This document shows positions 16,268-21,158 of a stretch of DNA of 64,000 bases, piece after piece. The stretch spans positions 2,353 through 66,352 of the forward strand of contig DAOUBT010000033.1 in assembly GCA_034432595.1 (NCBI GenBank). The letters run 5' to 3'. This DNA is from Anaerolineae bacterium (GTDB lineage Bacteria; Chloroflexota; Anaerolineae; B4-G1; SLSP01). How positions within the stretch are numbered: the stretch's first letter is position 1; the number at the start of each line of letters is the position of its first letter. The notes beneath the pieces were generated by a model. That model saw only the letters and a list, made by a program, of their open reading frames with translations. It was not told the origin of the DNA and did not search any database. The translations under genes and the position numbers were made by a program.

Positions 16268-18046
16268 TTACTCCGTCTTTTCACGTTCCATGGCGTAGAA
16301 CTCCAGGCGGTCCCCCACCTGAACTTCGTTGAAATTGTGGATGCGCACGCCACACTCGAAGTTCTCGCGCACCTCACGCATGTCCTTATCGAAGCGACGC
16401 AAGGAAGCCACCTCGCCCTGAAAGACCAGCGTATCGCCACGCAGCACACGCACTTTGGCGTTGCGGCGCACCACGCCATCGGTCACGAAACAGCCAGCCA
16501 CGCGCCCAACGCTGGGGATGTCGAAGATCTGCCGCACCTCGGCATGGCCGATGACAGCTTCGACGTAAGTGGGGGCGAGCAGGCCCTTCATCGCCTTTTC
16601 GATATCATCCACCAACTCGTAAATCACATCGTAGAGCTGAATCTGCAGATGCTCCATTTCCGCTGCGCGATGTCCAGCAGGGTCAATATCCACGCGGAAC
16701 CCGACGATAATGGCGTTTGAAGCCACGGCCAGGTTGACATCAGATTCGGTAATGTTGCCAGTGCCGGTGTGGATGATGTTCAGGCGCACTTCAGGGACTT
16801 TAAGCTGTTTGAGCGAGTCCACAATGGGTTCGATGGACCCCTGCACATCGGCTTTGAGGACCAGGGCCAGCTCGGTGGCCTGACCCTCCCGGACGCGCGC
16901 CGCCCAATCATCCAGGGACAGGACGCGCCGCTGCGCCGCCTGCGCCTGTTCACGCGCTTCTTCCTGACGCTTCTGCGTGATGGCGCGCGCGGTGCGCTCA
17001 TCGGCGACCCCCTCCAGGTGGTCACCGGGGCGGGCCACCTCGCTCAGGCCGACGATAACCACCGGCGTACCCGGTCCGGCCTCCTTGAGGCGACGTCCAT
17101 TTTCATCGTAAAGCGCGCGCACACGCCCATACGTGAGGCCCATGCAAAAATGATCGCCCACGTGCAGCGTCCCATTCTGGACCAGCACCGTAGCCACCGG
17201 TCCCATGCGCTTATCGAGCTTGCTTTCCAACACGGTGCCGTAAGCCATGCGATCCGGGTTCGCACAAACGCCCATTTCATCCGCTACGAGCAAAATGGCC
17301 TCCAGCAAGTCTTCGATGCCGATTTTCTGCTTGGCCGAAACCGGAATGAGCATGGTATTGCCGCCCCACTCGTCGGGCACCAGGCCGTTCTCGGCGAGCT
17401 GCTGTTTCACGAAATCGGGGCGCGCGTTAGGTTTGTCAATCTTGTTCAGCGCCACAATGATGGGGACGTGCGCCGCGCGCGCATGATTGAGCGCTTCAAT
17501 CGTCTGCGGCATCACGCCGTCATCCGCAGCGACGACCAGCACGGCAATATCGGTGATGTGCGCCCCGCGCGCGCGCATGGCGGTGAAGGCTTCGTGCCCC
17601 GGCGTGTCGAGGAAGGTGATGCGGCGTCCGTTGTGCACCACCTGATACGCGCCGATGTGCTGCGTAATGCCCCCCGATTCCTGCGCCACGACGTTGGTGC
17701 GGCGGATAGCGTCCAACAGCGAGGTTTTGCCGTGGTCAACGTGTCCCAAAATCGTCACCACCGGCGGACGCGGCTTGAGTTTGCTTGCATCTTCACCCTG
17801 CGTGAGAATCTGCCAGGGGGCAAGCTGCTCACTCTCGCTCACCTCCGGCTCGCTGAAGGGCAGCTGGGCCTCAAAACCAAATTCACTCGCCACAAAGGCA
17901 GCCGTGTCAAAGTCAATTTGCTGATTGATATTGGCAATAACCCCGTTCTTAATCAGGGTCTTGATGACGTTAATCGGCGTGACCCCCAACAAGTCAGCCA
18001 GGTCACGCACGGTGATAATCTCTGGTATCGTCACTTTCTTATCCAT
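16268..18046 (-). CDS. infB: Translation initiation factor IF-2 (short N-terminus)
   Basis: Motifs [28 protein letters not shown] and NKID. Confidence 0.97.
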
Positions 18047-18049
18047 ACT

Positions 18050-18379
18050 CTACACCTCCTCGGTTTGCACCGCCGGCTCTGTGTCCGACGTTTCGGGTAA
18101 TTGCTGCGCGTAAGCCTGCAACGCAGCGAGGGTTTCCGCGCTCAAGGTTGTTTTGAGCGCGCGCGCCAGGGCGCCGGTTTTGAGCGCTTTTTGCCAACAC
18201 GTGCGTTGCGGGCAAAGATAGGCCCCGCGTCCGTTCAGTTTGCCACTCGCATCCACGACAACCTGTCCTTCAGCGACGCGCACCAGCCGGATAAGCGCGC
18301 GCTTCGCATCCGTGCTGCGACAGGCTACGCAGGTGCGAATCGGCACGTGTTTTTTGCGCCCTGTTTTTGCTTGCGCCAC
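18050..18379 (-). CDS. ylxR: YlxR/RnpM-family RNA-binding protein (DUF448)
   Basis: Motifs HVPIRTCVAC and GRGAYLCP; RBS GGAGGTG before the GTG start. Confidence 0.92.
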   Translation of the reverse strand: MAQAKTGRKKHVPIRTCVACRSTDAKRALIRLVRVAEGQVVVDASGKLNGRGAYLCPQRTCWQKALKTGALARALKTTLSAETLAALQAYAQQLPETSDTEPAVQTEEV

Positions 18380-18555: not shown

Positions 18556-20571
18556 CTAATCCAGGAAATCCTCGTCCCAGTCCGCCTTTCCAGGACGTCG
18601 GACCACATACTTGCCATCGTCATCGTCGTAGAAGATCGGGCGTGCCTTGCGCTTACCCTTGACTTTCGGACGCGCCTTCTTGCCGCGATCGCGAGGCAGC
18701 TCTTCTTCCTCTTCATCCTCGTCAACCACTTCCACCACGGCTTCAAAGCGCCGCTTGTCGAAGAGTTCCGAAAGGTCGGAGATTTCTTCAGTCTCGGCTT
18801 CGGCAGGAGCAACCGCGGCGACTTCGGGTTCAGTCGCGCTGGCTTCCACCGGCGCGGCTTCGGCCACGACGGGTTCCACTGGCGCAGCTTCGGCCACAGC
18901 GGGTTCCACCGGCGCAGCTTCGGGAGCGGCGGTCTCTTTACGGGACGCAGGCGCCACCTCGACCCCGGTTGCGACCGCAGGCGCTTCTTCCACGGCAGGA
19001 GCTGCCACGGCTGCGGCGCCTTCGTCCAACAGAGCAAAACCGCTTGCCTTGAGAGCATCTTTGATTTCGGCCAGCACGCGGCTGCCAAAGCCATCCAGCA
19101 TGAGCAAGGATTCATCGCCCTGCGCGAGCCGTTCCAATATATCGCCCACGGTGAGCAGGCGATGGCGGAACAGGTGCGCGCGGGTCTTGCTGGAAATATC
19201 CAGGGTTTCAACCGAACGCTGATAGGCCTGCGCCGGCACGCGCGCGCGGGCGCTTTTGCGCGCCGCCTCGGCTTTGCTTTCCTCACGCGCTTGCGCAGGC
19301 TTCGCCTCCGCGGTAGCCGGAGCGCCACCGTGCTCGCGGCGGTTCCAGGCGTTGCGCACCAGTTCAATGAAAGTCTTCAAATGGTGCTTCTCTTCGTCCG
19401 TGTAGGGATAGGTTTCCTGCTGATGGGCACGGATGATGTCCTGCACGCGCTCAAGGAGCGCCTGCCGTTCGCGTCCGCCCAGCAGGGATGGGTCGGCTTC
19501 TACTTGCTGCAACGCCCAGGTGAGGGCTTCGTTCAGGCCCTGAATGTCCACGCGCCAACCGGTGAGCTTGGCCGTCAAGCGCGCATTCTGCCCGTTCTTA
19601 CCAATCGCCAGCGAAAGGTGCTCATCGAGTACCACGAGGGACGCGGTGCGCCCGCCGGGGTGCTTCTCATCGAGCACGATGCTCAAAACATACGGCACGC
19701 TCAGGGCGTTGACGATGTAACGCGCCGGGTCTTCGCTCCATTCGATAACGTCAATACGTTCGCCGTTGAGTTCGCGCGTAAGGCTCTGAATGCGCACCCC
19801 GCGCGGTCCAATGCACGCGCCAACCGGATCGAGACCGGCCTGACGCGAAGAGACGGCGACTTTGGCGCGGCTGCCAGCTTCGCGCACGATGTTGCGAATT
19901 TCCACGCTGCCATTGCGGATTTCAGGCACTTCCAGCTCCAACAGGCGCTTGAGCATGTTGGGATGGCTGCGCGAGACGATGATTTCCGGTCCGCGCCCGG
20001 AACGCCGCACTTCCAGCACGTAGACGCGCACTTTGCTGTGAATCGTGTAACGTTCACCCGGAATCTGCTCGGCGCGCGGCAGTTGGGCTTCTTCGTTGCG
20101 ATCCAGATGCAGAATGACCGCCTGCGCACTGACCGATTGCACGGTGCCGATGATGATCTCGCCGATTTGCCGGGTGAGGCGCGTGTGTTGACTTTCGCGC
20201 TCCGCTTCGCGCAGGCGCTGCGTAATCACCTGTTTGGCTGTCTGCGCAGCGATGCGTCCGAAGTTCTCAGGCGTGACATCGAGCATGACCGTTTCCCCCA
20301 GATGTACGCGCGGGTTGATACGCCGCGCTTCTTCGAGGGTGATGTCCTGATTCGGATCCTCCACCTTCTCCACCACCTGCTTGGTGACGAAGATACGCGC
20401 CACGCCGGTATCGAGATTGATGTCGGCGGTGACACTGATGCCCTGCGGCACGTTCCAATCGCGCCGATAAGCCGTCACCAACGCCGCCCGGACAGCCTCC
20501 AATACCACCTCCCGCGAGAGGCGGTATTCAGAGCAGATTTGATTGAAAGCCAGCGCAAATTCGCTTTTCAT
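18556..20571 (-). CDS. nusA: Transcription termination factor NusA with a long C-terminal extension
   Basis: Motifs FGRIAAQTAKQVI, S1/KH domains, REAGSRAKVAV and LAIGKNGQNARL; about 320 extra C-terminal residues. Confidence 0.95.
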   Translation of the reverse strand: MKSEFALAFNQICSEYRLSREVVLEAVRAALVTAYRRDWNVPQGISVTADINLDTGVARIFVTKQVVEKVEDPNQDITLEEARRINPRVHLGETVMLDVTPENFGRIAAQTAKQVITQRLREAERESQHTRLTRQIGEIIIGTVQSVSAQAVILHLDRNEEAQLPRAEQIPGERYTIHSKVRVYVLEVRRSGRGPEIIVSRSHPNMLKRLLELEVPEIRNGSVEIRNIVREAGSRAKVAVSSRQAGLDPVGACIGPRGVRIQSLTRELNGERIDVIEWSEDPARYIVNALSVPYVLSIVLDEKHPGGRTASLVVLDEHLSLAIGKNGQNARLTAKLTGWRVDIQGLNEALTWALQQVEADPSLLGGRERQALLERVQDIIRAHQQETYPYTDEEKHHLKTFIELVRNAWNRREHGGAPATAEAKPAQAREESKAEAARKSARARVPAQAYQRSVETLDISSKTRAHLFRHRLLTVGDILERLAQGDESLLMLDGFGSRVLAEIKDALKASGFALLDEGAAAVAAPAVEEAPAVATGVEVAPASRKETAAPEAAPVEPAVAEAAPVEPVVAEAAPVEASATEPEVAAVAPAEAETEEISDLSELFDKRRFEAVVEVVDEDEEEEELPRDRGKKARPKVKGKRKARPIFYDDDDGKYVVRRPGKADWDEDFLD
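18841..18930. repeat. Three tandem 30-bp repeats in the nusA linker (AEAAPVEPxV)
   Basis: GG(C/G)TTCCACYGGCGCRGCTTCGG... repeats with a 30-bp period. Confidence 0.8.
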
Positions 20572-20628
20572 GTACCTTTACTTCCTGTGTTATCCTTTTG
20601 AGAACAGCGTGTCGTAAGCGACTTACAA

Positions 20629-20657
20629 AGAAAAGTGGGGTGATGCCCCACTTTTCT
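20629..20657 (-). terminator. Leader terminator/attenuator upstream of nusA (rimP-leader-like)
   Basis: AGAAAAGTGGGG-CATCA-CCCCACTTTTCT followed by TT, lying between the promoter and the start codon. Confidence 0.7.
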
Positions 20658-20688
20658 CAACGAACCCAAACTGTATGCGACGCCCTAG

Positions 20689-20717
20689 ATTATAACACAG
20701 AGAAAAGGTTTGTGCAA
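20689..20717 (-). promoter_or_regulatory. Sigma70 promoter of the nusA operon
   Basis: TTGCAC-17 bp-TATAAT with an extended -10 TG. Confidence 0.75.
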
Positions 20718-20747
20718 GAGCCGCTCACTCGGACGGGCTACGAGCTA

Positions 20748-20775
20748 TTGACACTTTCAGGAAATGCCCTACAAT
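20748..20775 (+). promoter_or_regulatory. Divergent sigma70 promoter
   Basis: TTGACA-16 bp-TACAAT. Confidence 0.6.
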
Positions 20776-20822
20776 GAAATGTGTAGTTTATTTCCCTCTT
20801 TCTGAGATGAAAGGAGTTGCAA

Positions 20823-21158
20823 ATGACTGAAATGTCCTACACGTCGCCGGAGATTACGCCCGATGATAAGCTTTGGGCTCTGTTGAGCTGGCTGCTTTCT
20901 CCGCTCGTTCCCATCATCGTTTTGCTCCTTGAGGATAAGAAGGCCCGGCCCTTTATCAAGTACAATGCGATGCAGGCGCTGCTTTACGGAGTGGTGGGGT
21001 ACATCGTGGCCTCGGTTCTCTCCGCCGTAATCATCGGCTGCTTTGTTGGCGTTGGCTTGTTCATTTACCAGATTGTGCTCGCGCTGCAGGCCAATCAGGG
21101 TAAATGGGTGACGGTGCCTTTCCTCACCGATTTCTGTAAGAAGCAGGGCTGGATTTAA
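20823..21158 (+). CDS. Small membrane protein, DUF4870/Tic20-like
   Basis: DDKLWALLSW..PIIVLL..RPFIKYNAMQAL and a second hydrophobic hairpin; RBS AAGGAG. Confidence 0.75.
   Translation: MTEMSYTSPEITPDDKLWALLSWLLSPLVPIIVLLLEDKKARPFIKYNAMQALLYGVVGYIVASVLSAVIIGCFVGVGLFIYQIVLALQANQGKWVTVPFLTDFCKKQGWI

Follow-up and report, generated by a model that had tools for sequence, protein, structure and literature searches.

NusA of an Anaerolineae bacterium carries a paralogue of the RNA polymerase alphaCTD on its C-terminal arm

The NusA encoded in the window, by which we mean the whole 64,000-nucleotide stretch of DNA analysed here, carries beyond its second KH domain a small (HhH)2 domain that is a true homologue, and paralogue, of the RNA polymerase alphaCTD, both by sequence profile and by fold. 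The host bacterium belongs to the Anaerolineae (Chloroflexota), and the protein is its housekeeping NusA. Our explanation taken as a whole, to which we would give an even chance, is that this class has built onto NusA a class-specific arm whose rpoA-derived alphaCTD paralogue acts as a tethered clamp on nucleic acid.

The nusA open reading frame (18556..20571, 671 aa plus the stop codon) lies on the minus strand, as do all of the protein features described below. It matches TIGR01953 over aa 5-346 at 375 bits, above the cut-off of 253.4. Its first 345 residues (19537..20571) form a canonical core of NTD, S1, KH1 and KH2 according to Pfam and the AF2 model, with NusA_N at aa 4-126, S1 at 135-194, KH_5 at 232-298 and KH_NusA_C at 317-347, and a pLDDT of 75-95. 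Directly downstream on the same strand follow ylxR (DUF448; 18050..18379; Pfam YlxR, E 4.7e-27) and infB (16268..18046), which encodes a short IF2 of 592 aa with the Pfam domains IF2_N, GTP_EFTU and IF-2, giving the operon nusA-ylxR-infB. A misassembly or chimeric reading frame was ruled out, as 30 genomes and hundreds of metagenomic clusters show the same NusA architecture.

The earlier note on this DNA had remarked that a segment at about 19036-19218 (NusA aa 452-512) resembled alphaCTD, and had proposed a Pfam scan and structure prediction as checks. The domain occupies aa 447-512 (19036..19233), as placed by Pfam, a PDB profile search, Foldseek and VIA. Pfam RNA_pol_A_CTD (PF03118) was the sole family matched there (aa 449-508), the window copy scoring 18.0 bits in the context of full-length NusA and 22.7-23.5 bits when scanned by itself, against a cut-off of 23.8. 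The domains of 19 of 20 relatives matched the same family (best E 7e-11), and a precomputed PF03118 match exists for 6 of 19 NusA relatives. When aa 430-530 were compared with the PDB as a single sequence (phmmer), designed helical repeat proteins came top and alphaCTDs were ranked weakly (E 0.09-1.6), so a family profile was needed. With a domain profile built from 20 relatives, 1doq was found at E 4.7e-10, and 3ihq/1z3e followed at about 7e-9. Some 50 different alphaCTD sequences of known structure outranked every other protein, and NusA chains were absent from the 60 best PDB matches. A longer profile from 20 relatives (aa 350-545), spanning the domain, matched the alphaCTD of the RpoA encoded in the same genome (E 7.9e-17).

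The predicted structure gave the same answer. The AF2 model of the domain has a pLDDT of 86-96, and its top 50 Foldseek matches were all alphaCTDs (target TM up to 0.87), with compact alignments of 60-67 residues at an rmsd of 1.0-1.8 A. In VIA, alphaCTDs held ranks 1-4 (Z 9.3-10.8; best 1z3e_B, rmsd 2.0 A over 67/67 residues), whereas the acidic repeat AR1 of NusA (1u9l_B) appeared at rank 38 with a Z of 5.4. The resemblance to alphaCTD was upheld by family profile and by fold; the segment is neither an ordinary AR/HhH repeat of NusA nor unstructured, the two outcomes that the earlier note had named as speaking against its reading. The domain shares with alphaCTD (PF03118; 1doq, 1z3e_B, 1lb2) the same two-HhH fold as well as sequence homology, but alphaCTD proper sits on the alpha N-terminal domain and the Anaerolineae copy sits on NusA instead.

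All NusA sequence beyond KH2 fell within the span first noted (18556-19520, residues ~351-671), and the other elements described there, a helical segment, an Ala/Pro/Glu repeat linker and an acidic-basic-acidic tail ending DWDEDFLD, were also borne out. The arm runs from a helical spacer through the (HhH)2 alphaCTD paralogue and a disordered spacer to acidic and basic blocks and a terminal hairpin-Trp motif. The helical segment (aa 346-444; 19240..19536) is modelled by AF2 as helices at 346-359, 367-385 and 392-413, followed after a short loop by a long helix at 424-444, with a pLDDT of about 90 for aa 350-413. Its three-helix part contains a conserved P-Y-T-x-E-E motif in which P389, E393 and E394 show little or no variation. 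Pfam returned no match for the segment, and a fold search with aa 350-415 yielded generic helical matches alone (Z <= 6.2) and no nameable fold.

Beyond the alphaCTD-like domain, an Ala/Pro/Glu-rich spacer (aa 513-596; 18784..19035; net charge -16) is predicted to be disordered (pLDDT 34-42) and varies in length in the alignment of relatives. Within it, Tandem Repeats Finder identified a 30-bp repeat (18844..18923; 2.7 copies, 90% match, score 132) encoding a repeated 10-residue unit rich in A, P, V and E. An acidic block follows (aa 597-625; 18697..18783; net charge -10), opening with D-L-x-x-L-F-D-K-R-R-F-E, which is conserved in close relatives, and then a basic block (aa 626-645; 18637..18696; net charge +10). 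The terminal motif (aa 646-671; 18559..18636), delimited by AF2 strands and conservation, contains a predicted beta-hairpin (strands 646-649 and 654-657, pLDDT about 65) with the pattern h-h-Y/F-D-D/E-x-x-G-x-h-V, then basic residues, an invariant Trp665 and acidic residues. W665 was present in 20 of 20 relatives and D649 in at least 90% of alignment rows.

Pfam had no match for the tail (aa 590-671), and a search of the genome with the tail motif returned NusA alone. A tail profile run against 1.84 billion representatives retrieved 431 cluster representatives. All 14 matches that were read were fragments of NusA-type proteins, and the 26 listed matches of at least 250 aa were all NusA-type except for three unrelated repeat proteins (P0023, P0064, P0111); no second protein family bearing the hairpin-Trp tail was seen among the matches inspected. 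We think that this tail is a short motif in its own right that binds RNA polymerase, RNA or the core of NusA itself.

The phyletic distribution of the extension was surveyed by profile search in 301 Chloroflexota genomes, 34 of the same class and 267 of other classes. The helical-plus-domain extension was present on NusA-sized reading frames in 30 of the 34 Anaerolineae genomes, the NusA copy being missing from four, and was absent among the matches listed from the 267 genomes of other classes. Relatives with names were Anaerolineae, Anaerolineales and Thermoflexales MAGs, and some NusA relatives (P0009, P0070) bore two copies of the domain. A word-indexed search with the domain alone found four close relatives only and is uninformative on other phyla. 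Sister alphaCTD copies were found on ribosomal protein L31, including that of the window's own genome, on S16 and inside beta' in relatives. Both this class-wide spread and the burst of alphaCTD paralogues onto L31, S16 and beta' had been missed by the earlier note.

A 3-residue insertion was common to all NusA copies (25/25), L31 copies (14/14) and same-class RpoA CTDs (14/14) but occurred in none of 28 RpoA CTDs from other classes. Because it is shared in this way, the insertion points to an origin of the NusA domain by duplication, within the lineage, of the class's own rpoA CTD. By alignment it would fall between helices of the E. coli alphaCTD, at about residues 283-287. In the tree alone, the fusion copies stood next to the same-class RpoA group and were not nested in it; a clade uniting the two was not rejected by the AU test (p 0.45). 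The L31 and S16 copies and one beta' copy grouped with the NusA copies (SH-aLRT 91). The modules on L31, S16 and beta' represent recruitment of the same small domain, with different host proteins and different insertion points.

The surface of the domain retains part of what alphaCTD uses to contact DNA. We take the 265 determinant for UP-element DNA binding to consist of R265, N268, N294, G296, K298 and S299 (E. coli numbering). The equivalent residues of the window copy are K, A, G, G, R and V, an incomplete determinant in which K463 and R500 stand at the 265 and 298 positions. Across 25 NusA copies, the 265-equivalent was always basic (R in 11, K in 7, H in 7), the 298-equivalent was always K or R, and Gly296 was invariant. 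Asn294 was replaced by Gly in all 25, which yields a canonical G-h-G hairpin. Asn268, present in each of the 42 RpoA CTDs examined, was kept in only 4 of the 25 NusA copies, and Ser299 was mostly Ala or Val; the loss of the one and change of the other make UP-element-type reading by the NusA copies unlikely. The NusA copies were also more acidic on average than alphaCTD, with a mean net charge of -3.9 (range -9 to 0) compared with about 0 for the RpoA copies, the window's own copy being near neutral at -1. The NusA copies and alphaCTD have in common the basic 265-equivalent, Gly296, the K/R 298-equivalent and the Anaerolineae RpoA insertion, and differ at Asn268, Asn294, Ser299 and in average charge.

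We suggest, at somewhat less than even probability, that the domain, on its flexible tether, clamps the backbone of duplex nucleic acid with low specificity. Such a clamp would keep both HhH hairpins and the basic residues that make contact, minus the Asn that reads UP elements, and its target might be either structured RNA or the DNA close to the elongation complex. The domain would then be an extra anchor for NusA that replaces the proteobacterial AR1-AR2 arm, rather than part of an AR2/alphaCTD switch. It might also act as an alphaCTD mimic in a regulatory circuit, the different regulatory logic that the earlier note had put forward.

Some features of the NusA copies speak against a clamp. 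In their average acidity they are closer to the AR repeats, which bind protein, than to a DNA binder, and the conserved basic 265/298 surface could equally serve protein binding; in E. coli alphaCTD this surface is reportedly also bound by AR2. The domain could instead be a protein-docking module that stands in functionally for the acidic AR repeats, which we consider rather unlikely. Its candidate partners would be the polymerase's alphaCTD, another alphaCTD-type copy such as that on L31, the NusA tail (giving autoinhibition) or a regulator that docks on alphaCTD. The drift of the NusA copies towards acidity, like that of the AR repeats, fits such a role, as does the loss of the Asn268 needed to read UP elements. 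Pairs of (HhH)2 domains are known, and one of them, the AR2-alphaCTD complex 2jzb, was among the VIA structural matches of the domain. In the alignments, the insertion common to RpoA, NusA and L31 also appears to fall at the 287 determinant of E. coli alphaCTD, which we take to be an activator contact, and a common protein partner would explain why sister copies occur on several components of the expression machinery. Against docking, the positions conserved in 25/25 copies are exactly the HhH phosphate-contact positions, and the copy in the window has not itself become markedly acidic. A predicted complex of the NusA domain with the class RpoA alphaCTD scored 0.00, giving no support, and is not evidence either way.

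It is improbable, in our judgement, that the C-terminal arm is a tolerated lineage-specific appendage without a specific target and the alphaCTD copy an evolutionary passenger. The variable spacer with its recent 30-bp tandem expansion would suit that account, as would the same-class genomes from which the NusA copy is missing and four tail-bearing NusA relatives in which the alphaCTD-like domain was undetectable. However, mean column identity within the domain was 59%, a level typical of folded domains, compared with 38% for the whole C-terminal arm; the domain was kept in 30/34 genomes of the class, across several families, and stood in duplicate in some relatives; and charge was invariant at specific surface positions.

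That the domain is an ordinary NusA acidic repeat of the AR (HhH)2 type, only superficially like alphaCTD, is hardly credible: AR and alphaCTD do share the (HhH)2 fold class, AR1 was detectable in the structural search, and weak HHH_5 matches occurred in 4 of 20 relatives (best E 0.021), but the alphaCTD structural match was twice as strong, the AR-repeat model TIGR01954 matched nothing at E<=1 in the window NusA or its C-terminal half, the best PDB profile matches were alphaCTDs and not NusA chains, and the lineage-specific insertion is common to the domain and the class's RpoA CTD, so that profile, structure and insertion results already contradict it. Genome-wide, in a genome that is 92% complete, TIGR01954 reached at best 14 bits, in other reading frames, against a cut-off of 48. 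In E. coli, AR2 of NusA binds alphaCTD; with AR repeats undetectable in this NusA and genome, an AR2-alphaCTD switch of the E. coli form is ruled out here.

Compared with AR1 and AR2 of E. coli NusA (TIGR01954; 1u9l, 2jzb), the Anaerolineae domain, our candidate clamp, occupies the same place beyond KH2 on a flexible tether, belongs to the same fold class and shows the same tendency to acidity. AR1 and AR2 form an accessory interaction arm, and by analogy the Anaerolineae arm may plausibly play the same role. The two differ in that E. coli has an AR1-AR2 pair whereas the Anaerolineae NusA has one copy, rarely two; in that the Anaerolineae domain, unlike AR1/AR2, probably had an independent origin from rpoA; and in that E. 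coli AR2 binds alphaCTD whereas the Anaerolineae NusA itself bears an alphaCTD-type domain.

In the literature we found no description of a NusA with an alphaCTD-like domain or of an L31-HhH fusion, and a 2026 review of alpha subunits mentions the classical alphaCTD-NusA contact alone. The Anaerolineae arm would represent a second, independently evolved NusA arm, in which the class has swapped AR1-AR2 for a copy of alphaCTD, the target of AR2 in E. coli. The accessory C-terminal domains of NusA determine both its mode of activation and its choice of partners, and to our knowledge almost all understanding of them comes from E. coli. As the duplicated module also sits on two ribosomal proteins and beta', the class offers a natural experiment on alphaCTD away from the alpha subunit. 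It is a long shot that the modules on NusA, L31, S16 and beta' form one lineage-specific system that binds a common ligand and holds polymerase, NusA and ribosome together; the ligand might be a DNA or RNA that all of them bind, the alphaCTD of the polymerase itself or an adaptor protein common to them. If true, this would be an Anaerolineae-specific form of transcription-translation coupling, or a tethering of both machineries to the nucleoid. In the phylum Chloroflexota, where we know of hardly any transcription biochemistry, the arm and its sister copies provide a testable lead on how the machines of transcription and translation might be linked.

By sequence, the ORF at 18556..20571 (minus strand) unambiguously encodes NusA: TIGR01953 covered residues 5-346 of the 671-residue product with a score of 375 bits (cut-off 253.4), and Pfam placed NusA_N, S1 and KH domains in that order. 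Directly downstream on the same strand lie ylxR and then a short infB (592 aa). No same-strand ORF of at least 60 aa was found directly upstream (20572-20816), so no rimP-sized gene is present there; the nearest ORF beyond is small and on the plus strand (20817-21158). The span flagged in the earlier note corresponds to NusA residues ~351-671, that is, all of the sequence after KH2.

We modelled this C-terminal arm with AlphaFold2, both as the full-length protein on a 20-relative alignment and as residues 350-545, and the two models were concordant. Three helices (346-359, 367-385 and 392-413; pLDDT ~90), with a conserved P-Y-T-x-E-E motif, are followed by a long helix (424-444) and a compact helical domain (447-512; in the shorter model, pLDDT 86-96). 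Disorder was predicted across residues 517-639, a stretch that begins with an Ala/Pro/Glu-rich spacer of net charge -16. The spacer contains a 30-bp tandem repeat (window 18844-18923; 2.7 copies, 90% match) and varies widely in length among relatives, which suggests ongoing slippage-type expansion of a disordered linker. An acidic block (597-625, net -10) and a basic block (626-645, net +10) precede a hairpin-Trp-acidic end, whose short predicted beta-hairpin pairs strands 646-649 and 654-657 (pLDDT ~65). Models, charge and repeat together placed every extension element listed in the earlier note where that note had put it.

The compact domain had been proposed to mimic the C-terminal domain of the RNA polymerase alpha subunit (alphaCTD). 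RNA_pol_A_CTD (PF03118) was the only Pfam family matching residues 449-508; the window copy fell marginally below its cut-off of 23.8 bits (18.0 bits in the whole protein, 22.7-23.5 as an isolated domain), and 19 of 20 relatives matched (best E 7e-11). NCBIfam returned only rpoA models at this segment, and TIGR01954, the NusA AR-repeat model, had no match at E<=1 in the window NusA. When the domain profile was searched against all PDB sequences, approximately 50 distinct alphaCTD sequences ranked ahead of anything else, led by Thermus 1doq (4.7e-10) and Bacillus 3ihq/1z3e (~7e-9), with no NusA chain among the best 60 matches. A profile of residues 350-545, domain included, matched the RpoA CTD of the same genome (E 7.9e-17). 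By structure, all of the 50 best Foldseek matches in the PDB were alphaCTDs, with rmsd 0.9-1.8 A over compact alignments of 57-67 columns, and an exhaustive VIA structure search gave alphaCTDs at Z 10.8, 10.1, 9.4 and 9.3. Evidence from both sequence and predicted fold thus points to the alphaCTD homology family. The alternative, an ordinary AR repeat, was rejected: TIGR01954 did not match, and NusA AR1 reached only Z 5.4 (rank 38) versus 10.8 for alphaCTD. The resemblance held across the Pfam scan, PDB profile search, Foldseek and VIA, and the segment modelled as a structured alphaCTD-like domain, neither an ordinary AR/HhH repeat nor unstructured.

By word-indexed search, part or all of the arm was recovered in 19 NusA relatives, the named ones being Chloroflexi or Anaerolineae MAGs; six of the 19 carried a precomputed PF03118 match, so the NusA-alphaCTD architecture is already visible there. 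The earlier note had called for a phyletic survey, and we scanned 301 Chloroflexota genomes (34 same-class, 267 other) with the residue 350-545 profile. Full-length arm matches in NusA-sized ORFs occurred in 30/34 same-class genomes, own genome counted, whereas each match listed from the 267 others spanned the alphaCTD part only, in ORFs of 142-451 aa. The 32 other-class loci inspected were alphaCTDs belonging to alpha-subunit genes, including two second copies of rpoA. In a scan of species-representative genomes, 39 loci were labelled Anaerolineae, Anaerolineales, Thermoflexales/Thermoflexia or unclassified Chloroflexota, except for two MAGs labelled 'uncultured Chloroflexia bacterium'. Thus, the genome scans indicate that the arm is essentially a class-level Anaerolineae trait and no oddity of this genome.

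Three other-class genomes each had two alphaCTD-ending ORFs (G231, L033/L038; G263, L034/L039; G026, L036/L040), which look like second rpoA copies; L038 is a full-length alpha subunit by Pfam (RNA_pol_L, RNA_pol_A_bac, alphaCTD). Separately, two metagenomic NusA relatives, P0009 and P0070, had two tandem alphaCTD-like domains.

A profile of the last ~35 NusA residues, searched exhaustively against 1.84 billion representatives (E<=0.001), matched 431 proteins, nearly always at the very C-terminus. All 14 sequences read were fragments of NusA-type proteins belonging to this family. Among 26 listed matches of at least 250 aa, 19 carried the alphaCTD-like domain (one with two copies), four did not and three were unrelated repeat proteins; no second protein family with the tail was seen in these two sets. 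The four (P0103, P0113, P0115 and P0119) are NusA proteins with the tail and no detectable alphaCTD-like domain, so the tail can exist without it. Its invariant Trp, near-invariant Asp and predicted hairpin suggest a putative short linear binding motif.

Same-class genomes usually gave three matches to the residue 350-545 profile: NusA, RpoA and a ~160-aa ORF that encodes ribosomal protein L31 fused at its C-terminus to an alphaCTD-like domain. The own-genome L31 fusion lies outside the window (contig C95, L009:2100-2567, minus strand), with Ribosomal_L31 at aa 1-63 followed by the (HhH)2 domain (aa ~90-150). All 13 of the other same-class genomes examined also had the fusion, and of seven fusions scanned, five exceeded the PF03118 threshold. 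Three same-class genomes without the NusA copy carried one elsewhere, all on the minus strand: at the C-terminal end of a 329-aa ribosomal protein S16 in G290 (L048:1495-2481), and inside Rpb1 domain 3 of beta' in G210 (L049:1-3186) and G094 (L050:1-3213). A protein of >745 aa from another Chloroflexota class (G287, L041:1-2235, minus strand) had two to three alphaCTD/HhH repeats, then sigma-70 region 4 and a HARE-HTH domain.

A tree of 86 sequences over 72 columns, with few forks resolved, united NusA, L31, S16 and one beta' copy (SH-aLRT 91), separate from RpoA. Three residues inserted after the third helix and before the second HhH motif were shared by NusA (25/25), L31 (14/14) and same-class RpoA CTDs (14/14), and occurred in 0/28 RpoA CTDs of other Chloroflexota classes. 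The AU test did not reject the fusion copies and same-class RpoA as one group (p 0.45). From this one indel and the non-rejecting test, the simplest reading is that the class's own rpoA CTD was duplicated and that the copies spread to several hosts and diverged faster.

We compared the copies at positions 265, 268, 294, 296, 298, 299 and 302, which we take to be the DNA contacts of E. coli alphaCTD. N268, G296 and E302 were kept in 42/42 RpoA CTDs, and R265, N294, K298 and S299 each in at least 36/42. Among 25 NusA copies, position 265 was always basic (R 11, K 7, H 7), G296 was always kept and position 298 was always K or R; N294 was always Gly, giving a canonical G-h-G hairpin, and N268 was kept in four. 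The complete DNA-reading signature is absent from the NusA domain, and these residues fit retention of phosphate-backbone contact with loss of UP-element reading. No AR-type repeat was found in the own genome (92% complete), which precludes an AR2-alphaCTD switch of the E. coli form there. The arm would functionally occupy the place of AR1-AR2, yet its domain is no AR repeat. We tentatively predict, at somewhat under an even chance, that the domain serves as a tethered, low-specificity nucleic-acid clamp standing in for the AR arm. Its main rival, a predicted protein-docking role, we consider less likely. A simple DNA-binding role is disfavoured by the acidic average of the NusA copies (mean net charge -3.9; near 0 in RpoA copies, +0.7 in L31 copies, -1 in the window copy). 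The basic surface in question is reportedly also the one through which E. coli alphaCTD binds AR2.

Full-text literature searches returned no description of a NusA-alphaCTD or L31-alphaCTD fusion. Most interesting would be the possibility of joint action by the NusA, L31, S16 and beta' copies.
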